Below are positions 151 through 60,722 of a DNA stretch of 64,000 bases, in pieces. Below the pieces are notes generated by a model that did no database searches, had not been told where the DNA came from, and saw only the letters and a list, made by a program, of their open reading frames with translations. The stretch's first letter is position 1. Each line of letters begins with the position of its first letter. A program made the translations under genes and the position numbers. The stretch is from Dehalococcoidia bacterium (GTDB lineage: Bacteria > Chloroflexota > Dehalococcoidia > Lucifugimonadales > UBA3495). Location: positions 1,731,353 to 1,795,352 of the forward strand of contig OZ242027.1 in the NCBI GenBank assembly GCA_965204865.1, written 5' to 3'.

Positions 151-193
151 TGTCACCGCCCATGCAAAAATGAGCGAAATCGCCCATTGAGGA

Positions 194-203
<10 letters not shown>
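151..203 (+). repeat. IS21 left-end terminal repeats (two transposase-binding-type motifs)
   Basis: TGTCACCGCCCATG (151-164) and CGCCCATTGAGGATTGACCCACC (181-203) are inverse copies of the motifs reiterated at the right end. Confidence 0.7.
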
Positions 204-2292
<2,089 letters not shown>

Positions 2293-3519: not shown

Positions 3520-4848
3520 CTACTTGACTCCTGCCCTGTGCTGTTCCAGGCAATCCAGGACGATTTTGTTGATATCGGGAAACTGCCCCCGGGCGAAGTC
3601 ATCCAGCCGTTGCGCGATTTTCTCGCGAGTGCCATCCTCGTTCCACCAGGCATCGTAGTCAGACTCTTCCAAAACGTTGCCAATCCTGAGATCGATCGAA
3701 TCGTTCGCGTCCTCGGGAATCTCGTTGTCGAACAATTCAGGGTGGACGCTCAGCCGGTCCAGGATGCTACTCTTGAGCTTGCCGTCCCCGCGCCAAGTAA
3801 TAAAGAGCGACAGCTCCGCATGACGGTTGGCGCAACGCACCTGAAACTGCAACAGGATATTGGGCCAACCGTCCACCTTGAGTTCTTCCCTGTCCGCCCA
3901 TTCTGCCGCCACGAAGCGGGCATAGTTGCGGTTGCATGTGCTTTCCCTCCATTCGGGCCGGTTACGGACCGCATCCCGCACCATCCCGTACGCTTCACCG
4001 GGGTAGTCGGGCTCGTACCGCTCCCGATACTCGATGATGAGATCAATCGCCTGCTTGTGTTTTCGATAGATCTGGCGGGCCAGCCGGTGCACGTCGTCGC
4101 TGACTTCTGGCACGATGTTCCTCCGTATCGTGGTGGCGTACTGGCGCAAGGGCGCCCTTATATCCTCATGGACGCCGTTGCCTCTATTTTCGAGAGTGAG
4201 TTCGACCAGTCCCAGGATGTCCTTGTAGGTCATGGTTATCCAGTGCCTTTCTTCCTCCGGATTCTCGGGGACCGCGCCCGCAGGAGTCAGGAATATCCGC
4301 TCTACGCGGTGCTCCGGGTAATGCGAGTCAAGGGCCTCTCGATAGAATTCGAGCTGCGACCCGCTCTCCGGCGACCACACCTTGTTCTCAATTGCGCAAA
4401 TGAACCTCCAATCATCGTTCAGGATGCGGATGTCAAGCCTGCCGCTACCGTCCCGGAACGTGATGCCCTGCTCTCGGACCACTGTAGTCCTGTCGATGAG
4501 GGAGGCAGGAATGGCGCCACGCCACCCGCGGAAATTCAGGAACTCTCTCAGAAAATATGAGCCAAGCCCGTGGCTGGCTGCCGGACTCAATAACCAGGCT
4601 AGGAAATTAGAGTGAAATTCCTCTTTATCGTCCAACCCCAGAGAATGAAAGACGTCAACTGTGGTCAGCCAATCCTTGACTAGATCTCCGAGAGAATTCA
4701 GATCGCCTTCGTCGTCGCGCAGTCGCTCCAGAGCCATGCGGGATTCCCGGTCAACCCGGGAGAACAGGCCCTGAAGTTCTCCCAACGCCTCGTCCAACTC
4801 TCTCAGGGAAGTGATCGTCTCCGGTTTGTTCATGGCGCATTGTTTCAT
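3520..4848 (-). CDS. PD-(D/E)XK nuclease superfamily protein (PDDEXK_4-like N-terminal region, extended C-terminal domain)
   Basis: 442 aa. EFHSNFLAWLLSPAASHGLGSYFLREFL block followed by GRLDIRIL...ICAIENKV (D..ExK-type core). Family assignment is from memory of the Pfam pattern and was not searched. Confidence 0.65.
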   Translation of the reverse strand: MKQCAMNKPETITSLRELDEALGELQGLFSRVDRESRMALERLRDDEGDLNSLGDLVKDWLTTVDVFHSLGLDDKEEFHSNFLAWLLSPAASHGLGSYFLREFLNFRGWRGAIPASLIDRTTVVREQGITFRDGSGRLDIRILNDDWRFICAIENKVWSPESGSQLEFYREALDSHYPEHRVERIFLTPAGAVPENPEEERHWITMTYKDILGLVELTLENRGNGVHEDIRAPLRQYATTIRRNIVPEVSDDVHRLARQIYRKHKQAIDLIIEYRERYEPDYPGEAYGMVRDAVRNRPEWRESTCNRNYARFVAAEWADREELKVDGWPNILLQFQVRCANRHAELSLFITWRGDGKLKSSILDRLSVHPELFDNEIPEDANDSIDLRIGNVLEESDYDAWWNEDGTREKIAQRLDDFARGQFPDINKIVLDCLEQHRAGVK

Positions 4849-5110
4849 TCGGACCCGGACCCCAACCTGAATTCGGACTCATGGATTCACCTGGCTCCCT
4901 ATTGCCTTAAGCGGCGCATTGAGCCGCAAGCTGGTGCCGAACCATGGTCTCATTCGCAATCGTACTTGCGATACATTTTGCGGGCGCCCCAAGAGATGGG
5001 TCAACTCCTCAACGGAGAATCACGTCAAGAGACGACCCAGGAAGACGAATGTCAGATGGACAACCTGGGATTCCCTACCCCTTTGAGACCAAGGCAGTCA
5101 GGAAACCTCT

Positions 5111-5902: not shown

Positions 5903-7171
5903 ATGGCCAGATTAGAGTCGAGACTGTGGGACGCCGGTCCTCGCGGACTTACCAGACGCGACAGGCGTCCCTGCCAGTATTCAGTATACATCCCGGATCC
6001 TTTGGCCGGGCGCCGTTTTGTCCTCGACGGCGACGTGGCGGCAGACGTCGCTGACGCCGAGGCCGACCTGGTGCGCCTCAACGCCACTGCGGCAGCTCTC
6101 GCCGATACCGAGGCGCTGGCCAGGCTGCTTCTGCGCGCCGAATCCGTCGCCTCTTCAAAGATTGAAGGCCTGGTGGTGGGAGGTGGACGGTTGCTCCGCG
6201 CCGATGCCGCGCGACGAATGGGCGAGGAACCACGGGAAGTGACTGCAAGGGAGGTACTGGCCAACATCGATGCCATGACGGCTGGAATAGAGGCGGTCGG
6301 GGACGGCGGCCTCATCTCCATGGATACTGTCCTGGAGATGCACCGCCGCCTGCTGGCTGGTTCCCCCATGGAGGACCACGGCGGCCGCATCCGCACCGGG
6401 CAGAACTGGATCGGAGGCAGCGATTACAATCCCTGCTCAGCGGCTTTTGTGCCTCCCCCGCCGGAAGAAGTGCCCGGCTTGCTGGAAGACCTGTTGGCTT
6501 TCTGCAATGATGATCCCCTTCCCGCTTTGGCGCAGGCTGCAATTGCCCATGCTCAGTTCGAAACGATACATCCGTTTGCCGACGGCAATGGCAGGGCCGG
6601 GCGGTCGCTGATCCATCTCATACTGCGCCGGCGGGGTATGACGCCGCATTTCCTGCCTCCGGTCTCGCTCGTCCTGGCAACCTGGGTAAATGACTATGTG
6701 GACGGCCTTGCCGCGACCCGCTACATAGGACCGCCGGACGCGGAGGCTGCCCGTGAAGGGATCAACCGGTGGGTAGTGCTGTTTTCCGGCGCCGCCCGCA
6801 GGGCGGTTCAGGACGCCAGCCAATTCGAGCAGGAGGTGCGGCAACTTCAAGCCTCCTGGACGGAACTGGTCGGCAATCCCAGGCGTGACTCCACGGTCCG
6901 CCTGCTCATAGGAGGGCTTCCCGCAGCCCCGGTACTGACCACGGGTACTGCGTCCGAGTTGACCGGCCGGACGTTTCAGGCGGCGAATCTGGCGATTTCC
7001 CGTCTTGTGAGAGCTGGAGTCCTGGTGCAGGTCAATGTCGGCAGGCGCAACCGGGCTTTCGAAGCTCCCGAACTCATTGAAGCATTCACGTCGCTGGAGA
7101 GACAACTGGCCAGCCCAGGGGGAGACACTCGCATTTCCCCGCCTGCCCGCCAGGTGCCCGAGCGCCGGTGA
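5903..7171 (+). CDS. Fic/DOC family protein (AMPylase-type) with Fic_N-like N-terminus and C-terminal wHTH-like tail
   Basis: HPFADGNGRAGRSLIHL matches the Fic motif HxFx(D/E)GNGRxxR. N-terminal LLRAESVASSKIEGL contains an (S/T)xxxE(G/N) inhibitory-helix-like motif. Confidence 0.9.
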   Translation: MARLESRLWDAGPRGLTRRDRRPCQYSVYIPDPLAGRRFVLDGDVAADVADAEADLVRLNATAAALADTEALARLLLRAESVASSKIEGLVVGGGRLLRADAARRMGEEPREVTAREVLANIDAMTAGIEAVGDGGLISMDTVLEMHRRLLAGSPMEDHGGRIRTGQNWIGGSDYNPCSAAFVPPPPEEVPGLLEDLLAFCNDDPLPALAQAAIAHAQFETIHPFADGNGRAGRSLIHLILRRRGMTPHFLPPVSLVLATWVNDYVDGLAATRYIGPPDAEAAREGINRWVVLFSGAARRAVQDASQFEQEVRQLQASWTELVGNPRRDSTVRLLIGGLPAAPVLTTGTASELTGRTFQAANLAISRLVRAGVLVQVNVGRRNRAFEAPELIEAFTSLERQLASPGGDTRISPPARQVPERR

Positions 7172-7741: not shown

Positions 7742-9061
7742 TTGAAAGTAACCGTAATCGGTTTGGGGAACGTGGGGACCGTCGCCGCAGCAGGCTTCGC
7801 CCTCTCCGGCCACCAGGTCCTGGCGACTGATGTCGACCTGCATAAGATCCAGGCTCTCCGTGACAGGGGGTACTGCGGACCGGAGCCGGAACTGCGCGAG
7901 CGAATAGCGGCCGCTATGGAAGGCGGCAATATCCGCTTCCGGCACAGCGATGAGGTGGCGGAGGAACTGGGGGATGTAGCGCTGGTTGCGGTCGGCACGC
8001 CTCCGGGCGAAGGGTATTCCGTGGAACTTGGGCAGGTGGAAGGGGCCGTAAGCTGGGTGAGGGAGAGGGCGTCCAGCGGTCTGGTGCTGGCCATGAAGAG
8101 CACTGTGCCGCCCGGCGCCGGGGCGCGCATTCTTGAGAGGGAGCTTCGTGGAACCGGCATCGGCTACGCCGCCAATCCGGAGTTCCTCCGGTTGGGACAG
8201 GCGGTCCGGGACTGGGACTCTCCCGACCGGATTGTCATCGGCGCCGCCCCCGGAGACAGCCGTTCCCTCGAGATAATGCGCAGCCTGTACGAAGGCATCG
8301 ACTCCCCCGTGCTGACTACCAACATCACCACCGCCGAAATGATCAAATACGCCAGCAACGCTTTCCTTGCTACGCGCATCTCCTTCATCAACGAGATGGC
8401 CTCCATCTGCGACCGGGTGGGGGCATCCATTGACGACGTGAGCGAAGGTCTGGCCATGGATTCCAGAACAGGAGCCAGGATATTGGCCGGCGCCGGTTAC
8501 GGAGGGCCATGCCTGCCGAAGGATGCCGGCGCTCTCTTGAGCTTGGCCCGGCAGACCGGGGCCAGCGCTGATTTGCTACAAGCCGTTGTTGGCGTCAACC
8601 GGCGCCAGTGGCAACTCCCCCTCCGTGCCCTCAGGGACAGGTTCGGCGACAGGCTGAACGGATTGAAGGTCGCGGTGCTCGGGCTGGCCTTCAAGCCAAG
8701 AACCGGAGATCTGACCGAAGCTCCGGCGGTTAAGCTGGCCCTTGCGCTTGCGGAGGAGGGGGCGGAACTGACGGCCTATGATCCCAGTTTTACGAACGGC
8801 GGGAATGTGGCCCTTCCTGTCGCCATGCGGGTCGCCCCTGATGCCTTAACCGCCACTGCCGGTACGCAGGCCGCCGTGGTGATGACCGAATGGGGTGAGA
8901 TAGTCGAGGCTGACTGGGCCGCAGCAAAGCGGCTCATGGCTCCGCCGTGGTTCATTTTCGACGGAAGGAACGCGCTGGACCATAGAACGATGAAGTCGAT
9001 GGGCTTCGAATACGTTGGCGTTGGGCGCGGCTCCATGCCGCATGGCTCGTCCGGCCGATGA
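7742..9061 (+). CDS. Nucleotide-sugar 6-dehydrogenase (UDP-glucose/GDP-mannose dehydrogenase family)
   Basis: TTG start. Rossmann VTVIGLGNVGTVAAAGF, catalytic-Cys motif GYGGPCLPKD, C-terminal UDP-binding-type domain (GLAFKPRTGDLTEAP). Confidence 0.88.
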   Translation: MKVTVIGLGNVGTVAAAGFALSGHQVLATDVDLHKIQALRDRGYCGPEPELRERIAAAMEGGNIRFRHSDEVAEELGDVALVAVGTPPGEGYSVELGQVEGAVSWVRERASSGLVLAMKSTVPPGAGARILERELRGTGIGYAANPEFLRLGQAVRDWDSPDRIVIGAAPGDSRSLEIMRSLYEGIDSPVLTTNITTAEMIKYASNAFLATRISFINEMASICDRVGASIDDVSEGLAMDSRTGARILAGAGYGGPCLPKDAGALLSLARQTGASADLLQAVVGVNRRQWQLPLRALRDRFGDRLNGLKVAVLGLAFKPRTGDLTEAPAVKLALALAEEGAELTAYDPSFTNGGNVALPVAMRVAPDALTATAGTQAAVVMTEWGEIVEADWAAAKRLMAPPWFIFDGRNALDHRTMKSMGFEYVGVGRGSMPHGSSGR

Positions 9062-9073
9062 GAGGGGATCGGG

Positions 9074-10030
9074 ATGCCAGTTGAACAACGGGTCCTCATC
9101 ACAGGCGCGGCGGGTTTCGCCGGTTCCAGCTTTGTGAAGGCCCTGCTTGCCAGAGGATATGAAGTCAGTGGCCTGGACGTGGTGGCTCCAGCCCATGCCA
9201 GTTTGTTGCGGGAAGAGCTTTCCCAACCCGGATTCCAATATATCTGGAAGAGCGTCCAGGACGTCCAACCATCGGACATTGCCGGACATTCCGTTGTGGC
9301 GCACCTGGCGGCGCAGCCCGACACCCCCATGGCCTTCGAGTCGCCCCGCTATACCGCGATGCAGAACGTGGGCGGAACGGTGGACCTGCTGGAAGCGGTA
9401 CGCCACGCGGGCTGCGTATCCAAGGTGCTCTTCGCGGCCTCCGGCAACGAGTTGGGCCGGCCGCTGTACCTGCCGATGGACGAGGACCACCCTCTCACGC
9501 CTCACAATCCCTACGGGTTCTCCAAGGCTGCCGCCGAATTGGCGATGTGGGCCTGGCACCGGGCATACGGCATACCGGCGGTCGTGCTGTCCACGGGGGT
9601 GGTGGTGGGCCCCAACATGCGGCGCGAGATCTTCGTATTCAAGTGGCTGTGGAACGCCCTGCACGGCAGGCCCATCATCGTCGAGGGAGGGCAGCAGACC
9701 CGCGACCTGACCTACATCGACGATGTGATTCAGGCATGGGTGCTGGCCATAGAGGCTCCCGCTGAACAGGTGGTGGGACAGAAATTCTACGTTGGCTATG
9801 GCGAAGAGCACACCATCGAGGAACTGGCCTTGATGTGCCGGGCCATCACCGGGTCGGACGTATCCGTCGAATACGTCGACTACCGCCCTGGAGAGGAGGG
9901 GCAGCGTGAGGCGTTCAGCGCCGAGAAGGCCCGGCGGGTGCTAGGCTACAGCCCTCAGTTTCCTCCTGGGCAGGCCATTTCACTGACAGCGGGATGGATG
10001 TCCAGAATGCTCATTGATTCCGGGAAGTGA
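9074..10030 (+). CDS. NAD-dependent nucleotide-sugar epimerase/dehydratase (extended SDR)
   Basis: VLITGAAGFAGSS Rossmann motif, catalytic YGFSKAAAE (YxxxK). Starts 13 bp after the dehydrogenase stop. Confidence 0.85.
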   Translation: MPVEQRVLITGAAGFAGSSFVKALLARGYEVSGLDVVAPAHASLLREELSQPGFQYIWKSVQDVQPSDIAGHSVVAHLAAQPDTPMAFESPRYTAMQNVGGTVDLLEAVRHAGCVSKVLFAASGNELGRPLYLPMDEDHPLTPHNPYGFSKAAAELAMWAWHRAYGIPAVVLSTGVVVGPNMRREIFVFKWLWNALHGRPIIVEGGQQTRDLTYIDDVIQAWVLAIEAPAEQVVGQKFYVGYGEEHTIEELALMCRAITGSDVSVEYVDYRPGEEGQREAFSAEKARRVLGYSPQFPPGQAISLTAGWMSRMLIDSGK

Positions 10031-10110: not shown

Positions 10111-10202
10111 TTAGTCGTAGAGTCCACCTCTTTCGGCGAAGCGATCCGGAAAGACTTCGATTTCCGTCAAAGCCTGCTCCACCCCTATGTCCAGATTGGA
10201 CT
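10111..10202 (-). other. Out-of-frame continuation encoding the viperin C-terminal extension (SNLDIGVEQALTEIEVFPDRFAERGGLYD*)
   Basis: Reverse complement of 10111-10202 in the alternative frame reads ...Q S N L D I G V E Q A L T E I E V F P D R F A E R G G L Y D stop (TAA at 10113-10111). It is residue-for-residue colinear with vertebrate viperin [28 protein letters not shown]. One missing nucleotide near 10200-10203 (AGCAG|TCC) would join the frames. Confidence 0.75.
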
Positions 10203-11018
10203 GCTGTAGGTGTGCTCGCCTTTCGTGTTATCAAAGAACCGGCCCAGCGGATCGATCATCAGGTAGCTGCCGGTCATCTGCTCGTTGTTTTCGGGGACCA
10301 CCCTGATGCCCCTCCTCTCGACCGAACGGTTCCGCTGGACATATAGGTCGAATTCTTCCCGGTTGACGGCGAACTCATGAAACCGTTTGTCGTTTTGGCC
10401 CGCCACTGGCAGCGCCTGGAAAATCTTCCATCTCTCCGGCCCCATGGCCCTGATGAAAGATCGGAAGTCCTCGTCGACGTTTAGGCGGTTGACTACTGTG
10501 TTGACCTTCAGGCGGATGCCGCGGGCCTTGGCGCTTTCTCCGATGCGCAAGTAATCCGCCTCGGTCATCGGTTGTTTGCCGTTGACCACGCGTCCAATCT
10601 TGCGTTGCTTTTCGGGACTCGCGCTGTCGATACTGATGGCCAGGATGTCCAGGCAACCAGCGAGGCTTTCAAGCCAAGCTTCTGTGAAATTGGAACCGTT
10701 GGAAACCACAGAGGTAGTCAGGTCCAGTGACTTGGCGTGACGAGTCAGCTCGGGAAGCCAGGGGCAGAGGGTGGGTTCGCCGCCGGCGAAGTTGATCTTG
10801 AGGAATCCTGCCTTGGCGATAAGTGTGATAAGGCGGATGGAGTCGTCTTGAGGGAGGCAGTTGACGCCCTGGGAAGGACGCTCGGGGAAGGCCGCGAAGC
10901 AGAAGCCGCAACTCATATTGCACGACTTCCAGAGATGGTAGTTGACCGTGGTGACCTCAGCGGAAATAGAGCATGATTGGACCCTCACTTTTCGTATCCC
11001 AACCCCGTGAATTAACAC
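10185..11018 (-). CDS. Prokaryotic viperin (pVip, radical-SAM NTP 3'-deoxy-3',4'-didehydro synthase family); reading frame ends prematurely before the conserved C-terminal extension
   Basis: TVNYHLWKSCNMSCGFCFA parallels vertebrate viperin VNYHFTRQCNYKCGFCFH. Further colinear blocks: KINFAGGEP, SVVSNGS, LDILAISIDS, LKVNTVVNRLNVDED, RWKIFQALPVAGQN, VPENNEQMTGSYLMIDPLGRF. GTG start at 11018 (alternative GTG at 10988). Confidence 0.88.
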   Translation of the reverse strand: MLIHGVGIRKVRVQSCSISAEVTTVNYHLWKSCNMSCGFCFAAFPERPSQGVNCLPQDDSIRLITLIAKAGFLKINFAGGEPTLCPWLPELTRHAKSLDLTTSVVSNGSNFTEAWLESLAGCLDILAISIDSASPEKQRKIGRVVNGKQPMTEADYLRIGESAKARGIRLKVNTVVNRLNVDEDFRSFIRAMGPERWKIFQALPVAGQNDKRFHEFAVNREEFDLYVQRNRSVERRGIRVVPENNEQMTGSYLMIDPLGRFFDNTKGEHTYSSPIWT

Positions 11019-11122: not shown

Positions 11123-11803
11123 TCAGTCCGCATCCTGTATCGTTGCTATGTCGAAGGCGGTTCTTTTACCTTTCCACGATAGTTTAATCTCATCACCTGA
11201 CTGCCACACCAGTACTCCCTCAAGGTAATTCGGCCATCCGGTTTCTGCTGGCGATAAACGGAATATGCTTGCCACTAGGACCGACAGGATGATGTCGTGC
11301 GTGACAAAGACGTGGATTTGGCCATCGTTGCCCAGCGGGAATGTCACCAGATCAAGCAGAATTTCAACCCCCTCTGAGGTCGGACGCATACCGGGCAGGG
11401 GACTGGCGTCGTGAAGTTGGCGGCGGGCGATTTCAGGGACGGGAAGTGCCAGAAACAAAGGACCCGCTATTTCGGGATCGACAATGAAAGCGCCGGGATG
11501 CCCCAGACGCCGGTCTGTGATGACCTCGGCTGACGAACCGGCGCCGACAAGGATTCCACGTGTGGTCTGGACGCATCGGGGCACCGGGCTGGATACCGCG
11601 GTAATCGTTCTATTCTCCGATAGGGCTGCGCCCAAGTGTTCCGCATCCTGGAGACCCCGCGCGGTCAGGTTCATGTCGTGTCCGAAGGCGCCCATCGGAA
11701 TCTCCTCGCGCTCGGCGTGTCTGATGACCAAGGACACGTCCACGCCTTCAGGAACTGTGGCCAGGCGCTCCAGGATGGAGGCCACAGGATCGGGCGCGGT
11801 CAA
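11123..11803 (-). CDS. Histidine phosphatase superfamily protein (phosphoglycerate-mutase-like, branch 1)
   Basis: SLVIRHAEREE (RHG-type catalytic His), SSPVPRCVQT, VFVTHDIIL (second His). TTG start at 11803 overlaps the upstream stop (TTGA). Confidence 0.8.
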   Translation of the reverse strand: MTAPDPVASILERLATVPEGVDVSLVIRHAEREEIPMGAFGHDMNLTARGLQDAEHLGAALSENRTITAVSSPVPRCVQTTRGILVGAGSSAEVITDRRLGHPGAFIVDPEIAGPLFLALPVPEIARRQLHDASPLPGMRPTSEGVEILLDLVTFPLGNDGQIHVFVTHDIILSVLVASIFRLSPAETGWPNYLEGVLVWQSGDEIKLSWKGKRTAFDIATIQDAD

Positions 11804-13487
11804 ACTGCCCTGGCCCTGATGACCGAACTTACAGAACGGGTAGGGAGTACCTCGGTGAGTTCAAAGCCGGACTTGGCCAGGAGGTACCTGAACTGTTCCT
11901 CTGTGCGCTCCGCGCCCCCGGCCACAATAAGCATGTTCAGGTCCAGCAGGCCGCCGACGCCGGTCGTGCCGTCCAACACCATCTCAACCACGGAGAGTGT
12001 GCCCCCCTTCGGCATAGCTTCCCTGGCCTGGGTCAGAATGCGCACCGCGTCATCGTCCTGCCAGTCGTGCAGTACCCGGGCCAGTACCACCGCGCCGGAC
12101 CGGACCGGCCATTCGTTGAAGAGATCGCCGGGAACAAACCGGCAACGGTCCCCGATGTCGTCGGGTGCCTTGGCTAGGCCTACTACCTCCGAAAGATCCA
12201 TGACGGTGGCGGTCAGGCCGGGATGGGCACGAAGCAGGGTGAATGCCAGTTCGCCGGTGCCGCCGCCAGCGTCCAGTATGTGGTTGTGGCTTCCAAAGTC
12301 CCAGTCGGCCGCCAAGTCCTGGTAGTCGTGCCTGGCGTAGCTGGCAAAGGCCCTGTGAGAGGATTGCAGTTGCTCCGGCCTGTCCTTCAGTAGCTGGAAA
12401 AGGTTCTGGCCGTACAGCTTCCTGATGGCGGAGTTGCCGGTGCGGAGTGAGTACTCCGCCTCGGTCCAGGCCCTGTAGGTCTCGCCACCCCACAGGGAGG
12501 CGGCATCGGCCAGGGAGTGCAAGTGCGAGCGTTGTAGCAGGGCGCCCTTTTCGGTGTGGTGGTAGACGCCCTCGGCATCGGCCTGGACGAGTCCCAACTC
12601 CGTAAGGGCTCGTATCAGCCGGAGCCCCACGGAGTCCGCCAGTTCGAGCGATTCTTCGATGTCCTCTGCTGACGCCGGCAACGACTCGAACACACCCATT
12701 TCCACCGCAGCCCGTATGGCCTGGGTCCTCCACATCCCCACCATGTCGCCGGAGAGTTCCTCAAGAGGAGTGCGAAGAGACTCCCTAAGTTTGACCAGGA
12801 TCTTTCCTGACTCCCCGATGACCGACAGCGAACCGTCAAACCCTTCCACCCTGGCCTGCCCGTTGTAGAAGGGCTCCGCATTCCTGTAGCGGTCCTGGTA
12901 CAGCGGCTGTCCGTGAACATCGACGTGGTGCCAGCCCTGCTCATCCCGAGCACGGGCGAAGTTCTTGTGGAACACATCCAGATCGAGGAACCACCGCCCA
13001 TGCAACAGAGCGCCGGAGGGGCCGATGTGGCTGTGCCGCCCGTCATCGCTTTGCACAACGGCAGAGCCGTCCTTGAAATCCCCGGCATAGCGATAGCGCT
13101 CCTCATAGGCCGGGTTGCCGTCTTCCACAAGGTGAAAGTAGCGCCCGCCTGAGCCTCGCACGGTGCAGCGCCCCTCCTGGAAGTTGCCGCACCAGGCATA
13201 CCGCTCCGGGTAAAGGGGACTGCCGTCAGGCAGGACGTGGAGCCATCCGTCAATGGAATGCACCGCGGCGCGCCCCTCGTAGAACCCGAAGGTCCTGATG
13301 TAGCGGGGATCATAGGCCGGCAGACCGTCGGGGGTGACGTGGTAGGCGCCGGTGCTGTCCACCACCGGCGCCAAGCCCGGCGCGTGGAACTTCAGCACCT
13401 CCAGGAACCGCGCTTCGTAGACGGGTCTCCCGTAGCAGACGTGATGAGTGCCGTCCGCCGCTATCCTGTATTCTCGCCAGTTGCCGC

Positions 13488-14548
<1,061 letters not shown>

Positions 14549-14552
<4 letters not shown>

Positions 14553-15913
14553 CGCCCTCCCCTTTCCCGGATCAGTCCCTCGTAGATCTGCTCCACGGCG
14601 AGGGCATGGTCTCGGATGTCGGGAACGTTGCCGTCGGCAGACTGCAAATACCCCCGGCGGCCTAACCGTGTCGCCAGTCCCGGGTCGTCGGCCAGCCGCT
14701 GCATCTGGCGGGCCAGCGACTCGGGGTCCCGGTGGGTGAAGAGCAGACCGTTCTCTTCGTGGTGGACGTATTCGGCCATGCCGCCATAGTCGGCGGTGAT
14801 CACCGGCACGCGGGCCTGCTGGGCTTCGTGGATCACCAGCGGCGAGTTCTCGGCCCAGATGGACGGCACCACGATGGCGTCGCACAAGTTGAACACGTCC
14901 GGGACAATGTTCTGGTTACGGTACTCGCCCATCCACTCGACACGATCTCCGGCGGTACCAGGCAAGCTGCGGGCCAGCGCCTTTAGTCCCTGAGTCTCCA
15001 CTCCCCGGTCCCGCCCCCAGATGCGGAGCCTGCTCTCCCCGGACAGCCGCCCGAAAGCCTGAATCAGGTGGTCCACGCCCTTGGCCGGTATGTGAGTGCC
15101 GATGTAGCCGAAGGTAAAGGGATCGCCTGGGGCGCGCTCCCTGTCTGCCATCCGGTCAAGGTGGAAGCCGTAGTCCAGGTAGACAAGTTTCTCCTCAGGG
15201 AGGCCGAATTCGTTCCTGAACCGGCGCAGCAGGTACCTTGCCGGGGCGATGAACACGTCCACTGCGTCGCATACCTCGCGCACGTGGGACATGCGGCGAC
15301 CCACCCACCGGGTCCAGTAGTCGGCGTCCAGTTCGTACTCCCGCGCGTCTCCGGAGAAATACCGGGAGTAGCAGCGCTCGGCGCACTTGCGGTCGTCCTG
15401 TCCATTACAGACGGCCCAGGGGTCGGAGGGATCCTCCGGATACGTCTGGATGAACTGTCCCCGCGGGCACATCACCCAGTAGTCGTGGAGAGTGAACACC
15501 ACCGGCACGCCGCAATCCCTGGCAGCAAACACCAGAGACGTGGACAGGTGGTTCAGGTGTCCCACGTGGATCACATCCGGCTTAACTTCATCGAGGACAT
15601 CGGCAAAGGCGTGATCCACGGCCCGGTGCCGGTAGCCGTCTCTGGCCCTGGCCATGTTGACGACGTGAAGGGTGATATCCGGCGCGGAAGGGTCGGAGTC
15701 CCTTTGCACCTCGTATTCCTGGAGGAAGGCGTTTTCCTGCCTGGTGAAAACGTGGACCTCGTGCCGCTCCGCCAACGCTTGTGCCAGGCCCTGGGTATAG
15801 ACCTCCGAGCCGGCGTTATAGCGCATCGGATAGCCGTGAATCACTTGCAGAATTTTTAATTGCTGGCCCGGCAATCTCGGTTTCTCCTTGCTGTCGGCAA
15901 AGTCGTACCTCAT
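14549..15913 (-). CDS. GT-B fold glycosyltransferase, family 4-like
   Basis: LKILQVIHGYPMRYNAGSEVYTQGLAQALAERHEVHVFT (GT4 N-terminal domain). C-terminal VVPSIWAENSPLVIHEAQQARVPVITADYGGMAEYVHHEENGLLF (E-x7-E-type region). Confidence 0.82.
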
Positions 15914-15922
15914 TTTCCAGCG

Positions 15923-15951
15923 ATGATAGTAATAATGTTATTGCCGGTCAA
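15923..15951 (-). promoter_or_regulatory. Candidate sigma70-type promoter for the GT4-rSAM-OMT-phosphatase operon
   Basis: On the minus strand: TTGACC (15951-15946), 17-nt spacer, TATCAT (15928-15923), in an AT-rich patch. The ATG at 15913 lies only 9 nt past the -10, implying a leaderless or near-leaderless mRNA. Confidence 0.3.
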
Positions 15952-16089
15952 TGGGATGAGATGAGGACCAATACTACGCTCCTTTCCGCCTACACCCTTT
16001 TGCAGAATTTGTGCTCGCCGGTTCCGTTTGCTTGTAGGGTCTGGCATGAGGAAGCATCCCACCAGCAGGAGAGAGATACGCTATAAGCA

Positions 16090-16818
16090 AACGGACCCTT
16101 CAGCCAGTTGATAGTCCGCTCCGCCAGATTGAGTTGCTGGTTCACGGTCCGGTGGAAAGGACCAACGCGTTGTTCGTTGATTTTCCGTGGGATGGTAAAG
16201 CTTATTCTCCACCGCCTGAGGCAGGCCCTGATCCTGCGGCTGCTGTACCCTTCGTCAGCGCTGACACCGCGGACTCACTGCGGCTTGATACGGGGACGGC
16301 CGCGTCCGGAACGCCTCACAGCTCCTTGGACCATCAACTCCTCGAACGCGCTGGCCTCGTGACATTAACCAGGAGTCAGCACGAATGCTGCCGCGTTGCC
16401 CTGGCCCTCGACCTTCAGTTGGACTTTGGTCCCGAACCCTCCTTCGGGTACAGCCCAGCGCCTGACCGTCCTCCCTCCTTTGCCCCAGCCGCGTGCTGAT
16501 GCGCCCGGACGCTGGCGCCGTCCATGTAGTCCACTTCGCACTCAACATGCCCGGCGGCATCGGCTTCCCGCTGCACCTGAGTCAGAAACCGCTCCCACAA
16601 TCCCTGTTTACCCCACCGGTATGAAGGGCTGGCTACCCTGCCACAAGGCCCACAGCGCTGCGCAGGTTGGGCCTAGGGGCGCCGGCACGCAAAAACCACC
16701 AGACCCCGTTGATGATCATGCGACGGTCCTTCCCGGGCCGCCCAGTGATCGGCTTCCGGGCCGGCAATTGCGGCTTCATTCGCCGCCATCGATCATCCGT
16801 CAAATCCCCTCGTACCAC
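16090..16818 (-). pseudogene. IS5-family (IS427/IS1031-like) transposase pseudogene, multiply frameshifted with in-frame stops and C-terminally truncated
   Basis: Segments in different frames: MVRGDLTDDRWRRMKPQLPARKPITGRPGKDRRMIINGVWWFLRAGAP, then GLWERFLTQVQREADAAGHVECEVDYMDGASVRAHQHAAGAKEGG, then GGFGTKVQLKVEGQGNAAAFVLTPG(stop)CHEASAFEELM, then ADEGYSSRRIRACLRRWRISFTIPRKINEQR...NLAERTINWLK. Confidence 0.8.
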
Positions 16819-17230
16819 CCGCCTAACTCGTCATTACAACCTGTCTCATCCAGTTTAAGCTTCACAATCGGGTTTGCAAACGCGCCCTGGTGCTCTCCCC
16901 AGTCGGCGCTACTTATAGGGATAACCCAAATAGAGCCCTGCCAGGGTGTCCTGTAATTCACCCGGCTGAAAACTTCCCTTACGTGGGAGTTCTGACCGGA
17001 AACCAGATTCGCCATTGTCTACGGAATCAATTTCTTATTTGGATGGAATACAGAATTTACACATTAAAATATACAACTCTTTCGGCATACCTATTGAGTT
17101 ATACACTCAAACAGTCATTACAGTGCCTACGAATTTCTGCGGATATCTTGCGCGAAAGATAAAACTTTCCGGGTACTTGACAATCATATGAGGTGGGAAT
17201 TTTGGACAGGAACCGCAAAGGAGCGAAAAT

Positions 17231-17539
17231 ATGACTGGGCGTTTACCGCCGTTCGCCATCCACCTCAAAAGTCTGCGGGAGAAATCGGGTAAAAGCCGGT
17301 ACGCAATCGCCAGATACGCAGAGTTGGACGAAGCCTATCTGCTCCGGCTGGAATCGGGGGCTCGCCGGAATCCGTCGAGGGATGCAGTGATAAAAATTGG
17401 CCTTGCACTGGTGTCGGGAACGACTAAGATCACGAGGCACGATATCGACCGGCTCCTGGTATCGGCCGGCTATCTCCCGCTAATGGGCAGGGGTGAGCCG
17501 CTTTTCGAGGTGGACCAAGGAGACTGGACCGATAGCTAA
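17231..17539 (+). CDS. XRE-family helix-turn-helix transcriptional regulator; 3' end runs into the IS3 left inverted repeat
   Basis: AAGGAG Shine-Dalgarno 7 nt upstream of the ATG. HTH region LKSLREKSGKSRYAIARYAELDEAYLLRLESGARRNPSRDAV. The last ~11 codons (EVDQGDWTDS*) are encoded by the IS3 IRL starting near 17506. Confidence 0.75.
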   Translation: MTGRLPPFAIHLKSLREKSGKSRYAIARYAELDEAYLLRLESGARRNPSRDAVIKIGLALVSGTTKITRHDIDRLLVSAGYLPLMGRGEPLFEVDQGDWTDS

Positions 17540-18867
17540 ACGGTAATCCTGCTCCAAACTAAAGACAGCAATTGCCGTTGTCGAGGCGGAGCGGGAAATG
17601 TCCAGAGAGCGGAGAAAGTACAGCCCGCCTCCAAGGCTAGAATTGCACTGGTGGCATTGAAGGGAGAGCAGACGATGCCCGCGCTAGCCGCCCGGTTAAG
17701 GTCTACCTCAACCAGATTCAGAGGTGTATGTAGGTTCTGGCCGATGCCGAGGCAGCCATCTTTGCCCACGTCAACGGGACCGATAAGGGCAACGAGTCGA
17801 GGAACAACGACACCTTGGTGGTCCTGTTGTACCAGCAGACCGGACAGCTGAAGGAGAAGCGGGATTTCTTTCAGGAGAGGGCGGCTCCGTGATTCCAGCA
17901 CGGCGGCGCGTGATGGTCGACTGGCGACATCGGCACCTATCCGTGGTGCGGCAGTGCGAGTTCATAGGCGTCGGCAGCCCCAGCCTCCACTACCGTGCCA
18001 AGGAGACCTCGCAACGGGACCTGTCCCTGATGCCGGAGGTGGACCGCCAGTACCTGGAAACCCTCTTCCAGGGTTCCGGGCGGGTGAGGGCCTCCCTGGA
18101 ACGGCAAGGCATGCCGGTAAGCCGTAAGCGGGTACAGCGGCTCATGAGACGGGGCTGCGGTCCATCTACCGGCAGCGCCGCGCCAGCCAACCGGCGCCGG
18201 AACGCCAAATGTACCCCTGCCTGCTGAGGAACTGACGATTGCCCGTACGAACCGGGTATGATCCGCTGACATCGCCTATCTGCCCATGGCCAGGGGATTT
18301 CTCTACTTGGTGGCCATCATGGACTGGTACGGCCGTTAGGTGGCGGCCTAGCGTTTGTCCAACACTCTGGTGGCCAGCTTTTGCATCGAGGCGTCGGGCG
18401 ATACCCTGAGCCAGGGAACGCCCGACCTTTTCGAAACCCGCCAGAGAAGCCGGTTCACCAGCCGCAAGTTCACGCAGATACTCCAGGATCACTAGGCGAG
18501 GATCAGCCCGGATGGCAGAGGCCAGTGCCAGGAAATCGTAGCCGTCGAGCGGCTATGCAGGACGGTGAAGAACGGGAAGTCTACCTAAAGGCCTTCGCCA
18601 ACGGCCTTGAGGCCCGCGAGAGTACTTCCGGTTCTACGACCACCGGAGGCCGCATCAGGCCCTGGGACTACCGGACGCCGCTCGTGTGCCTGCTGCACTG
18701 TACCTGGGACGTTAGTCGCCAGCCGCTGAAACCCATGCTTGGGACTTTCTATCAATGGCCGCCGGTAAGCCGAAAATGGTGGCCCTGAATGCCTGCATGA
18801 GGTACTGATGGTGATCCTGAACTCCACGCTTAAGCACGGTTCATCTTGGAACCACGGGGCCACCAAG
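17506..18867 (+). mobile_element. Decayed copy of the IS3-family element found intact at 57176-58591
   Basis: IRL-like CGAGGTGGACCAAGGAGACTGGACCGATAGCTAAACGGTAATCCTGCTCC aligns with the intact IRL TGAGGTGGACCCAAGAAACTGGACAGGTAGCTAAGTGGGAATCCTGCTCC. IRR-like TCTTGGAACCACGGGGCCACCAAG ends near 18867. The orfA/orfB homologous sequence is broken by many frameshifts, stops and deletions (e.g. MSRERRKYSPPPRLELHWWH..., fragments [57 protein letters not shown]). Confidence 0.8.
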
Positions 18868-18980
18868 TCCCCGGCCCATTTCCATTGACCTTCCAGACAG
18901 TTGCTTGACACCAGGGGAGAAAGAAGTTGGGAAGACTATCCAGCCACTGTTAACCCGGTAGTGCCGGGTCCGGCTACGGC

Positions 18981-20039
18981 TCACTTCTTCCTCTTGGACC
19001 TCGGTTTTCCGGCGTTGGGATAAACCCTGCCTCTAGCGTCTTCGAAGTTGAACCGGTGTCTGGACCGGCCTGATTTGGCCACTTTCAGGTTATCCAAAGG
19101 TGAAGACCTTTGGCCCATCAGGGCCCTGTGTTGGTCTGCCAGGTGAATATACTGTTCGACCATGGCCCAAGTGGTATGCCCCAGGTTCTGCTTGAGCAGG
19201 AAGGGGTCGCCGCCGTGAATCAGGAATTGGGTGGCGTAGGTGTGCCTCAGCAGGTGGGCGTGCAGCCTGGGGACGCCACTGGTGTCGGCGAGCCTTCTCA
19301 TAATTGACTTGAGGGCTTCTTTTTGCATGGGGTATCCGTCGATGGACAGGAAGAATGCGTCAGCGGAAGAGGAATCCGCCTCGAACCTGTAGTGGTAGTC
19401 ATAGTGTATGAGGGTTCGCTGGCAGTTCGCTCCGAAGGCCACCACGCGCTCCTTGTTGCCCTTGCCCAGCACCTTCAGGTACCGGTCTTCCAGGTGAACA
19501 TTCTCAGGCTCAAGCCTGACTACCTCGGCGAGCCTGAGCCCGGTGTCAAGCATTAGGGTGACCATTGCAGTATCCCTGGCACCCAGAACAGTGTCTTGGT
19601 TCATGCTGCGCAGGATCCTGTCGATATCGTCACCCGTTAGGATGTCCTTGACCTTCTTGGTGAACTTGGGTGGCTTCATATGCTCGAGGCGATGCTCTTT
19701 CGTGTACCCTTGGCTGTGAAGCCAACTGAAGAAGGCTCGAAGCGCCCTCACCCTGTTGTTCACCGTGGTGCTGGAAGCGAAACCCCGGTTGCCCTTCCTG
19801 GTCTGGACGTAGAGCACGAACTGCCTGGCCTCCTCCTCTCCCAGGTCATCAATCAAGCAGGACATGCCCTCTTCTTGCAGCCAGCGGTGAAAGAGACCCA
19901 GGGCCTCGTTGTACCAGCCAACGGTTTCCTGGGACTTTCCCTCCGACCTGTTGTGAACCTCGAACTGGAGAATGAGAGTCGGGAGTTCCAATTTCCGCGA
20001 AGGCATTTTCCGTCTCCGAACTGACTGTCTTTGTGTCAT
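18981..20039 (-). CDS. Tyrosine recombinase / phage-type integrase
   Basis: N-terminal SAM-like core-binding domain (SEGKSQETVGWYNEALGLFHRWL). Catalytic region ARDTAMVTLMLDTGLRLAEV (Arg), HLLRHTYATQFL (H-x-x-R), LGHTTWAMVEQYIH (His..Tyr). Start is ATG 20039 or 20003. The ORF-track extension to 20441 reads through a tRNA-like sequence. Confidence 0.88.
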   Translation of the reverse strand: MTQRQSVRRRKMPSRKLELPTLILQFEVHNRSEGKSQETVGWYNEALGLFHRWLQEEGMSCLIDDLGEEEARQFVLYVQTRKGNRGFASSTTVNNRVRALRAFFSWLHSQGYTKEHRLEHMKPPKFTKKVKDILTGDDIDRILRSMNQDTVLGARDTAMVTLMLDTGLRLAEVVRLEPENVHLEDRYLKVLGKGNKERVVAFGANCQRTLIHYDYHYRFEADSSSADAFFLSIDGYPMQKEALKSIMRRLADTSGVPRLHAHLLRHTYATQFLIHGGDPFLLKQNLGHTTWAMVEQYIHLADQHRALMGQRSSPLDNLKVAKSGRSRHRFNFEDARGRVYPNAGKPRSKRKK

Positions 20040-20240
20040 AATATGTACTTGCCTCACAGTTGAGAATTGCCTGGCAGGCAAGCATTCGGAGACGGGGGCT
20101 TGGCGGCAGAAAAGGCAGGGGACCGGATTAGGAGGGCTGGCGGGAGAATCGCCGGTCAATCGGCCGACCGGGTGTCGATTTGAAGCTGTAAGGGGCGGGA
20201 ATTTCCAAATTCCCGGCTGGGGCGCAGGACGTTTAATTTG

Positions 20241-20281
20241 CAAGCAGGGGGTCAGGGGTTCGACCCCCCTCACCTCCACCT
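20241..20281 (+). other. tRNA/tmRNA-like 3' fragment (T-arm + 3' acceptor strand), candidate att/direct-repeat site
   Basis: AGGGG-TTCGACC-CCCCT (T-stem/loop, 20254-20270) followed by CACCTCC-A-CC (20271-20280). No matching 5' acceptor strand (GGRGGTG), D-arm or anticodon arm in the preceding 90-250 nt. GGACG upstream is reminiscent of tmRNA 3' regions. Confidence 0.5.
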
Positions 20282-20556
20282 CGTCGCAGACTGCTTGCGT
20301 TGCCCCTGATATGGCCTCTGTCTCTCTGAAGAGGTTCCGATTACTTTCACTTTTCCGCAGTACCATAAAGACAGTCGTGGGACTGCTATGGACCGTCCTC
20401 TGCTGCTTAATTGTCTGATCATACATACTTGACTGGCGCACAAGTAGCTGGTATGCACCTAGCGCACAAGACTGGACTCAAGATGCGTTCCGGGGGCGGT
20501 CATCATTGTCAGAGATGGACTAAGAGCATCGAAAAGCAGGCAGGAGGGCAAAACGT

Positions 20557-57265: not shown

Positions 57266-57574
57266 ATGTCCAGAGAGCGAAGAAAGCACAGCCCGGCCTT
57301 CAAGGCCAAAGTTGCGCTGGAGGCAATGAAGGGCGAGCAGACGGTGGCCGAGCTGGCCGCCCGGTTCGAGGTTCACCCCAACCAGATTCAGACATGGAAG
57401 AAGGCGCTGGTCGACGGCGCGGCCGTCATCTTTGACCAGGGCAACGGGACCAATGCCAATAAGGACAGGGGTCAGAAGAGCAAGAACAACGACGCCCTGG
57501 TGGCCCGGCTGTACCAGCAGATCGGCCAGCTGAAGGTGGAGCGGGATTTCTTGGAGGAAAGGTCCGGTCCATGA
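57266..57574 (+). CDS. IS3-family transposase OrfA (HTH)
   Basis: [43 protein letters not shown]-terminal leucine-zipper-like [16 protein letters not shown]. Confidence 0.88.
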
Positions 57575-58563
57575 CTCCGGCACGGCGGCGTGAGTTGGTG
57601 GACCGGCGATATGGGCGCCTGTCCGTGGTGCGGCAGTGCCGGTTGCTGGGCGTCAGCCGCTCCAGCTTCTACTATCGTGCCAAGGGGACCTCACCACAGG
57701 ATCTGTCCCTGATGCGGGAGATCGACCGCCAGTACCTGGAGACGCCGTTCTACGGTTCCAGGCGGATGAAAGCCTGTCTGGAGAGGCAGGGCCAGCCGGC
57801 CAGCAGAAAGCGGGTGCAGCGGCTGATGCGGGTCATGGGGCTGCGAGCCATCTACCGGCGTCCCAGCACCAGCCGGCCGGCGCCGGAGCAACGGGTCTAT
57901 CCCTACCTGCTGCGGGAGGCCAGGATCACCCAGCCCAACCAGGTGTGGGCGGCGGAGCAACGGGTCTATCCCTACCTGCTGCGGGAGGCCAGGATCACCC
58001 AGCCCAACCAGGTGTGGGCGGCGGACATCACCTACCTGCCCATGGCCCGGGGGTTCCTGTACCTGGTGGCGGTGATGGACTGGCACAGCCGCTACGTGCT
58101 GGCCTGGCGATTGTCCAACACCCTGGAGGCGGGCTTCTGTGCCGAGGCGCTGACTGAGGCGTTGGGCTGTGGCAGGCCCGAGGTGTTCAACACGGACCAG
58201 GGAAGCCAGTTCACCAGCCGGGAGTTCACGCAGATACTGCAGGATCACTCGGTGAAGATCAGCATGGACGGCCGGGGCAGGTATCAGGACAACATCTTCG
58301 TGGAGCGGCTATGGCGGACGGTGAAGTACGAGGAGGTGTACCTGAAGGCCTACGCCAACGCCACTGAGGCGCGCCGGGGACTGGGAGAATATTTCCGGTT
58401 CTATAACAACCGCAGGCCGCACCAGGCATTGGGCTACCGGACACCGGCCGAGGTCTTCTACGGAGAGCCTGAAATAGAGGAGTTGAAAGAGAGGAGGTGT
58501 TTGGACCGACCGGTATTGGTACCATACGAAGGAGCGCAGGAGTCCCACTTAATTGCGGCCTAA
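57571..58563 (+). CDS. IS3-family transposase OrfB (rve/DDE integrase core) with 23-aa internal tandem duplication
   Basis: In the -1 frame relative to orfA, with an ATGA overlap. [10 protein letters not shown]...[63 protein letters not shown] occurs twice in tandem. Confidence 0.85.
57886..58023 (+). repeat. Perfect 69-bp x2 tandem duplication inside IS3 orfB
   Basis: 57886-57954 and 57955-58023 are identical base for base (GAGCAACGGGTCTATCCCTACCTGCTGCGGGAGGCCAGGATCACCCAGCCCAACCAGGTGTGGGCGGCG). Confidence 0.9.
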
Positions 58564-58594
58564 TCCTGTCCAACCAATGGGGTCCACCTCAACC

Positions 58595-60722
58595 AGCACC
58601 TGCTCCTACACTCGCGCCGACGCCCGCGCCAACCCCGACAACCGTCCCAACCCCAACGCCTGCACCAACTGCAATGCCCACAGTAGCGCATGCCCCTACG
58701 CCCACGGTTTCCCCTACTTTGACTCCAACATCAACGCCGATCCCGACCACGACCCCGACTCCCACGCCAGCCCCAACACCCACACCCCTACCCACCCCAA
58801 CGGCTGCACCCACACTGATCCTCAAACCTACTGCTACCCCAACTCCAATACCGGAACTGAAAGAACGAATCTATCAAGGAGCCAATCTATCCGGTTGGGA
58901 AGTGGTAGTTGGGGATGGTCTTTACGTTCAAGAAGGTGAACGCCCTGTAGATATACAAGACTTGGAGACCGTGCACTTTGATGATTACAGCGAGCTGCGA
59001 GCCAATATCAAGGGAAGAGGTATTATGGCTCACAATATAACTGTCAAAAGATTCAGAGATCCTGACGCCTTCAAGTTCAATCATAGATTGAAGTACGAAT
59101 TTCGGCTTCCTTACGAACCTGTCAAAGGCGACAGCGAGTTTAATCCGCAGACGATAGAAGGGTCCCTTCAAATTTGGGACGGGGCAAATAGGAGGATAGA
59201 TTACGTTACCGGTTTTCAGTGGGACCTGAACCCATGGGACCCTGACTATGGCTCTATTGATATGTGGTTTGGCAGTATAAAGAGATGGCAAAAGGTTGGG
59301 TTTTTGAAGCCGGATACTTTGTGGCATACATTTGAAGGCTATATTGATTTCGAGAATAACAGAACTTGGATCAGCATTGATGGTGTGAAGTACGAATCTG
59401 AACTATACGAAACGAGCAGAGCAGGTTTGCGTTGGGGACGGGATGTTTCGGCTAGAACAAATGCTGAGATGATAAGCCTCTGGCCCGGGAAAACAAGTGG
59501 GGGCGCTAAACACAGGGCTCAATTCAGAAACTGGGTTTGGATCTGGGAGCCTATTCCCGGAGCCACCGCTGTTTACCACCCTGCGCCAACTGCTACGCCT
59601 GTCGGTATCGATGCAACTGCCATCACCAAGGAGAAGGCGGACAGGATAAAGTCCCGGATAGGCCTGACGGCCGAAAAGACCGTAATAGCCGCCTACATGG
59701 GTTGGTACGGGCTTTCGCTGGGGACTGAATGGAAGCACTGGGAGTGGAAGGGCGAAAACCCTCACGATCCAAGAAAATTCGTCAGCGAAGGCCGGCGCGA
59801 TATAGCTGCGGTGAACTACCCGATGATTGGACCGTACCGGTCGACCGACCCGAGACTGCTGCGGTACCACATCAGGCTTGCCAGGGCGGCAGGCATCGAC
59901 TGCATGTCGGTTTACTGGACTACGTACCGGTATCTGCCTGGTATCGATCTGAAGTACCAAGACCGAAACTTCTCGCTGATGATGGATGTGGCGGATGAGG
60001 AAGATTATTGCCTGACGGTGAGAATGCAGCCCAAGATTCACTTCAATGGATGGGTGAAGCACCCTTCCAGGGAGGAAGCCTTAAGCGCCGTCGAAGACGA
60101 TTTCAGATATGCGTTGCACCAATACAGCAAGCGCAAGAGTTTTATGAAGCACCAGGGCTTGCCCGTGTTGTTTGTTTACGGAACATCCAGGCTCACCCCG
60201 GAGGAATGGGCCAAGTTGGTCTCAAACCTTGAACGGGAAGGCCACTACTTCATCATGGTCAGCGACAGTCCCGATCCCGCCTATTTCGGGCCATTTAGCA
60301 GTTTCTACAAATGGCCGTGCTGGTCGTGTGTCAAGAGAGATGGCGATGCCTACTTCTCAGACGTGCTGCGCAGGATGAAAAAGCACAGCGTCGGGCGGGA
60401 CGACGTGGTTCTAGCTGCAGGCGTTTGGCCCGGTTTCGACGACACCGGAGTCTGGGGTTGGGGAGACGGTCCGAGGGTCTGGGATAGGCGAGGGGGCGAG
60501 TCTTACAAGGTTACATGGGAAGCCGCGCTCGCTCACGATGCGCGATGGATCAAGATCGTAACGTTCAACGACTGGAATGAAGGAACGGAGATTGAGCCCA
60601 GCATCGAACACGGCTTTGGTTACATTGAACAAACGGCAGAGTGGATAGGCAAGTTCAAAGGCGTTGCAATAGACTGGTCGCCAGCGATACAGCTCACGAA
60701 CAATTTCATTTCGGGTAAATGA
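58595..60722 (+). pseudogene. 3' part of the IS3-interrupted lipoprotein gene: PT-rich linker, unknown beta-rich domain, GH99-like (WbsX/endo-mannosidase-like) domain
   Basis: PAPAPTLAPTPAPTPTT... linker, then C-terminal AAYMGWYG...WKHWEW, NYPMIGPYRSTDP, AGIDCMSVYW, WPGFDDTG, IVTFNDWNEGTEIEPS (compare GH99 NEWHEGTQIE). Confidence 0.75.

Follow-up and report, generated by a model that had tools for sequence, protein, structure and literature searches.

A one-base gap detaches the conserved C-terminal extension of a prokaryotic viperin in a Dehalococcoidia defence island

A prokaryotic viperin (pVip) gene in the window, by which we mean the whole 64-kb stretch of DNA analysed here, lacks one base relative to its intact orthologues. 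As the original prediction had proposed, this single missing base detaches the conserved and functionally important C-terminal extension of the enzyme, which is borne out both by a gap in the DNA alignment and by separate database matches of the tail. The gene is encoded on the minus strand. Its body (codons 1-265; 10194..10988) starts with the GTG at 10988-10986 and extends through Ile265 (ATC 10196-10194), and the open reading frame as assembled ends with ...GEHTYSSPIWT at a TAG (10187-10185), which results in a product of 267 aa. The C-terminal extension follows in the -1 frame of the same strand (10114..10194) and comprises 27 codons (residues 266-292, LDIGVEQALTEIEVFPDRFAERGGLYD) including the RxxxY clamp (RGGLY). 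This frame reads ...SNLDIGVEQALTEIEVFPDRFAERGGLYD and terminates at a TAA (10113-10111). Direct reading found both stops where they had been predicted. We lean towards the view that the deletion is a real and very recent loss-of-function mutation of a pVip located in a defence island.

As assembled, the protein carries the radical SAM CX3CX2C motif in frame (C23-NMS-C27-GF-C30), matches the Pfam profile Radical_SAM (PF04055) with an E value of 9.5e-17 and scores 286 bits against the NCBIfam equivalog NF038283 (viperin_w_prok), covering model positions 3-258 of 281. Aligning the repaired protein to a pVip profile, a check suggested together with the original prediction, extended the NF038283 match to positions 3-280 of 281 at 304 bits, with the tail contributing +18 bits. 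Both versions lie above the curated cut-off of 180 bits. PADLOC pVip models likewise match the open reading frame as assembled with E values of 1e-71 to 1e-83, and the best pVip match reaches 1e-87 after repair. By these curated sequence thresholds the gene belongs to the pVip family, to which it adds a new, if unremarkable, member. A search of 5.8 billion proteins returned dozens of homologues of 292 aa with 75-84% identity, all of which end with ...GEHTYSSPIL[E/S/T]VGVEQAL...RF.ERGGLYD. The viperin of the window is colinear with these orthologues as far as Ile265, and in tblastn residues 1/3-265 (10988/10982 to 10194) align at 75-84% identity. When compared to the pVips represented by NF038283, by the PADLOC pVip models and by Bernheim et al. 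(2021), the latter as far as cited in PMC8124187, the protein shares the CX3CX2C core and the defence-island setting; it differs in that its C-terminal 27 residues are out of frame as assembled, and it matches the models over their full length only once repaired.

The GTG start was considered as a second defect of the gene and rejected because the same start is present in sister loci: it is common to L001-L005 and L084, and the 30 nt upstream are shared with sister loci as well. Several database products of 243 or 268 aa (P0002, P0014, P0034-P0038, P0040 and P0043) begin at an internal methionine, residue 25, and thereby lose Cys23, with which the CX3CX2C cluster motif begins. Where the DNA was checked (window 10916-10988 on the minus strand, L001-L005 and L084, which covers P0002, P0014 and P0040), the real start is the GTG located 24 codons upstream. 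The internal starts of these database products look like a systematic start-codon mis-annotation. For annotation it is of value that the 243-aa product P0002 is wrong at both ends, with an internal methionine start and an early stop.

We located the lesion by a MAFFT DNA alignment with ten relatives and by tblastn with eight orthologue queries. The alignment contains a single 1-nt gap, with CCAAT-CTGGA in the window where the closest relatives read CCAATCCTGGA or CCGATCCTGGA and others CCAATTCTC or CCAATACTC; all ten relatives are gapless and in one frame across this site. The tblastn searches always returned two HSPs abutting at 10194, with residues up to 265 in one frame and residues 266-292 in the -1 frame. 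Both approaches place the absent base between T10195 and C10194 (10194..10195, minus strand), and C10194 is used twice, as the third base of Ile (ATC 10196-10194) and as the first base of the tail-frame Leu (CTG 10194-10192). We infer that the ancestral sequence was ATC-CTG (Ile265-Leu266), the loss of one C of the CC pair at 10194 being the simplest event. Beyond the gap, direct reading and translation give an out-of-register TGG ACA TAG (Trp-Thr-stop; 10185..10193, minus strand) that contains the premature stop. The gap at 10195/10194 disrupts the frame with respect to the intact orthologues, and no other lesion was found in the viperin gene. The missing base had originally been sought further upstream, at the boundary of AGCAG and TCC (10200-10203). 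We rejected this breakpoint because the S-S-P-I of the orthologues is encoded in frame 0. Since the orthologues carry YSSPIL-VGV, the frame-0 S-S-P-I is still homologous and the break must lie after the Ile codon; the real site is thus 6-8 nt away, in the Ile-Leu codon pair. The homology proposed for the tail holds, but the pairing of S-N-L-D with S-I-L-D was one residue out of register at its first two positions.

The C-terminal extension with its R-x-x-x-Y clamp is missing from the translated product but encoded intact (..RFAERGGLYD) in the -1 frame. The eight orthologue queries matched the tail as a separate HSP (10194 to 10114) with E values of 1e-5 to 3e-10. When only columns with at least 80% conservation among 102 homologues are considered, 11 of the 12 conserved tail positions are kept, the twelfth being a conservative V-to-I exchange. 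In the DNA alignment, the TAA at 10111..10113 (minus strand) occupies the same position as the stops of the orthologues and represents the ancestral stop of the full-length gene. Of the 164 related loci, which were taken from species-representative genomes and metagenomes, 159 are uninterrupted as far as residue 287 or further; contig ends truncate three others, and two (L065 and L135) are damaged. Hence, the tail is a constant feature of the viperin family, and the case named beforehand as contradicting the prediction, in which all orthologues end at the early stop, was not seen.

On the structural level, residues 13/14 to 291 of the repaired protein can be aligned with the solved vertebrate viperin RSAD2 (PDB 5VSL, apo; 6Q2P, CTP-bound) and with the viperin-like 7N7H, and the alignment continues through ILD-GVE-A...F..RGG-Y. 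The vertebrate C-terminus on which the predicted colinearity had been based matches that of the 5VSL chain in this alignment. When compared to RSAD2, to which it is about 40% identical, the protein has no N-terminal amphipathic ER anchor and ends with RGGLYD, so that everything downstream of this motif, with the C-terminal Trp found in the human enzyme, is missing. According to Shomar et al. (bioRxiv 10.1101/2023.09.13.557418), the C-terminal extension closes the partial (beta-alpha)6 barrel in all viperins. If the missing C were an artefact, the viperin of the window would also possess this barrel-closing extension, which serves as a criterion for viperins.

The viperin C-terminus is disordered without substrate and becomes partly ordered with CTP; the arginine and tyrosine of the highly conserved RxxxY motif hydrogen-bond to the terminal phosphate, with alanine in their place the human and fungal enzymes no longer make ddhNTP, and deletion of 18 C-terminal residues costs >80% of the activity (bioRxiv 10.64898/2026.09.10.750538). 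Since the frameshift affects all 27 residues of the segment, RGGLY among them, and since engineered variants lacking clamp or tail lose >80% to 100% of their activity, we predict that the truncated 267-aa enzyme retains little catalytic activity or none. The engineered forms of fungal TtSAND and human viperin that are shortened at the C-terminus or have RxxxY changed to Ala (bioRxiv 10.64898/2026.09.10.750538) are altered in the same region; the natural lesion, however, removes more, namely 27 residues including the clamp, and those variants are deliberate constructs in eukaryotic enzymes. The course of events that we propose would start from an intact ancestor encoding a 292-aa pVip, a radical SAM enzyme making ddhNTP chain terminators. 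Once one C had been lost from the codons ATC-CTG (Ile265-Leu266), translation would continue after Ile265 with Trp-Thr-stop and yield a 267-aa product without the last 27 residues, i.e. without the helix and loop closing the partial TIM barrel and without the RxxxY clamp gripping the terminal phosphate of the NTP. The outcome would be a pseudogene in the making, derived from a defence gene whose defence island is mobile and evolves fast.

The explanations listed in the original prediction, an assembly indel, a recent inactivating mutation or, less likely, recoding, comprised the right three options. An assembly or consensus artefact, by which the organism would have an intact 292-aa pVip (ATC CTG) and one C would have been dropped in the long-read consensus or during polishing, has a serious though less than even chance of being correct. 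Such an error would agree with the single lesion in an otherwise perfect gene, with a tail that is as conserved out of frame as the body in frame, with the matching position of its stop and with a missing base that belongs to a homopolymer pair (CC). In long-read consensus sequences, the residual error encountered most often is the loss of a base from a short homopolymer (CC to C). The window stems from a MAG consisting of one 4.31-Mb contig, whose relatives are long-read MAGs with names typical of long-read metagenome projects, and a frameshifted copy was present in none of 80 species-representative genomes. However, the run at the indel site is only 2 nt in length, with no long homopolymer, and the gap is thus not a typical long-read consensus error. 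Moreover, none of the about 50 other open reading frames of the 64-kb window, whose Pfam profiles were covered, is split between frames, the sole exception being an IS3 orfA/orfB pair. This indicates a low local indel error rate and makes an artefact less likely, short of excluding it. In addition, defence genes in mobile islands are often really inactivated, and unambiguous decay is present near viperin in sister genomes. We continue to favour a real mutation, in which case the deletion would be present in the organism rather than in the consensus only and would probably abolish the activity of the enzyme.

A second copy of the allele was not found: look-up of the exact product was empty, its 90% cluster contains no further member and is found on one contig, and P0002, the annotated product of the window, was the sole copy of its kind among the 5.8 billion proteins searched. 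No viperin allele of the same lineage was found in the metagenome collection, where the best match had 55% identity, and the best match among the species-representative genome contigs had 77% identity, so that these representatives do not include the source genome or its species. Strain polymorphism, with intact and deleted alleles coexisting in the symbiont population and the consensus having taken the deleted one, is conceivable in that metagenome-assembled genomes are population consensuses and that defence genes are often polymorphic for loss-of-function alleles. With the sequence residing on one contig only in the collections searched, we regard it as unlikely.

More improbable still is a programmed -1 ribosomal frameshift at AUC-UGG that re-reads C10194 and provides full-length viperin at some frequency, or a functional split gene. 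A -1 slip re-reading this C would give exactly the orthologue-like ...SSPI-LDIGVEQ..., and a -1 shift at the same core/tail junction also occurs in one distant relative, L135 (45% identity). However, no X XXY YYZ slippery heptamer is present in the zero frame of 10245-10180, no homopolymer of four or more is found upstream of the viperin stop, and the 100 nt downstream do not form a stable RNA structure (MFE -29.3 kcal/mol compared to a shuffle mean of -28.1, z = -0.33). The shift is also not conserved; it is absent from all close orthologues, including the ten aligned relatives (10/10 in one frame), and L135 is the only other shifted copy among the 164 loci. Because slippery heptamer, homopolymer, stable structure and conserved shift are all absent, recoding, although correctly put last among the three options, has to be placed much lower than the 'less likely' it had been given. 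A separately translated tail peptide is implausible, as no start codon in its frame is preceded by a ribosome-binding site at the proper distance, the only in-frame start being a GTG (10182-10180) with G-rich sequence abutting it without a spacer.

The IS3-type transposase of the window (57266-58563, plus strand), which consists of orfA (HTH_Tnp_1) and orfB (HTH_21 + rve) in overlapping frames, resembles the viperin gene in having two consecutive same-strand frames that make up one functional unit. In IS3 elements, these overlapping frames are usually read through by programmed -1 frameshifting, so that a frame switch is the family norm, and the shifts are conserved across members and come with a slippery A-rich heptamer and a downstream structure. 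In contrast, the viperin site possesses neither heptamer nor structure, and its shift is unconserved.

The lesion of L135 (3434-3734, JFJP01054105.1) is of a different kind, with an extra AT in ATTATATC as its apparent cause, and its tail is intact (..VGVAEAF..FVARSGVYNW). As the loci were selected by best-segment score, which favours lesions near the C-terminus, the position of this shift near the same junction is probably a coincidence helped by the selection. The window and L135 together, two independent lineages that are shifted into the -1 frame no more than one or two codons from the Ile-Leu junction, might also be taken to mean that the core/tail junction is a recurrent or regulated breakpoint, the tail-less form being used or the tail being restored by low-level non-canonical -1 frameshifting; we consider this highly doubtful. 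If it were true, a tail-less viperin would be tolerated or used, e.g. as a non-catalytic or regulatory form, and non-canonical frameshifting would gate a potentially self-toxic chain-terminator synthase.

Damaged viperin copies do recur in the clade. They account for about 3 of the 45 closest homologues: P0042 has an N-terminal frameshift, P0044 ends early at ..DPLG and P0085 leaves its frame several times, all at other positions than the disruption in the window. An in-frame stop is present in the viperin of L065 (8001-8855). Sister loci also contain damaged copies of the nucleotide-sugar dehydrogenase (UGDH) that adjoins the viperin cluster: in L003 (9985-10738) it is devoid of its first 181 codons and carries a frameshift at codon 344, and in L002 (9953-11415) it is divided between two frames and contains about 100 additional bases. 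In the window itself, the decay of the locus that had been offered as part of the mutation scenario is not supported beyond the missing base. The six genes flanking viperin, encoding a GT4 glycosyltransferase, a radical SAM/SPASM protein, an O-methyltransferase fusion, a histidine-phosphatase-like protein, an epimerase/dehydratase and a nucleotide-sugar dehydrogenase, are full length compared to five syntenic Dehalococcoidia genomes, and viperin carries no further lesion.

The first four of these genes form a co-directional cluster directly upstream of viperin (11123-15937, minus strand), in which the O-methyltransferase is fused to an unknown N-terminal domain and the phosphatase-like protein resembles His_Phos_1. 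The epimerase/dehydratase and the dehydrogenase converge on this cluster from the other side (7742-10030, plus strand). The GT4 glycosyltransferase also matches PF20706, 'GT4 in conflict systems'. The cluster is kept, even through rearrangement, in 8-10 of the 164 viperin loci (L001-L005, L013, L014 and L028), and neither a PADLOC nor a specific NCBIfam name was found for it. These clade-specific neighbours (GT4, rSAM/SPASM, O-methyltransferase and phosphatase-like protein) could constitute a viperin-linked pathway of their own. The viperins of other relatives are flanked by a TPR/HTH protein (34 of the 164 loci) or by a nucleotide kinase, a known pVip partner (15 loci).

Since matches to further defence genes are located nearby, we place viperin in a small defence island. 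These genes encode a PD-(D/E)XK nuclease (3520-4878, minus strand) that scores 211 bits against the PADLOC candidate system PDC-S26 and a Fic protein (5903-7171, plus strand) that matches the SoFic defence model over its full length with 245 bits. The island further contains IS21-type istA/istB (191-2292, plus strand) and a tyrosine integrase (18981-20477, minus strand). The SoFic and PDC-S26 flanks are not common to the syntenic sister loci. No tRNA gene was detected in the window, and an Rfam scan of it was also empty. Between the glycosyltransferase and the integrase, about 3 kb (15938-18980) contain short open reading frames only, with no Rfam or tRNA match; the one frame tested (16050-16499) gave no Pfam match, and the region could consist of island DNA that is decayed or non-coding. 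A 749-codon open reading frame with a GH99-like domain (58473-60722, plus strand), which follows the IS3 element directly, shows flat codon-position GC with a GC3 of 0.57 compared to about 0.78 elsewhere, and is likely to be foreign DNA.

Judged by their record titles, the close relatives of this viperin (L001-L080) come mainly from MAGs of Dehalococcoidia, Poribacteria and Latescibacterota, lineages that typically occur in sponge microbiomes. It is common for a genome to have several viperin copies; OZ253565.1 carries two and the CBDBLV01 assembly three, which suggests that pVips have expanded or been exchanged within this community.

Whether mutation or artefact, a frameshift of one base in the defence gene of a MAG is nothing unusual, and the viperin lesion alone matters little, adding one more pVip orthologue and either a fresh knockout or a consensus error. 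The gene company that viperin keeps is more curious than its lesion. If reads confirm the deletion, the locus would provide an example, dated to zero, of defence-gene loss in the defence island of a symbiont. A real deletion would also amount to a natural experiment on whether a bacterial viperin depends on its RxxxY C-terminal clamp.
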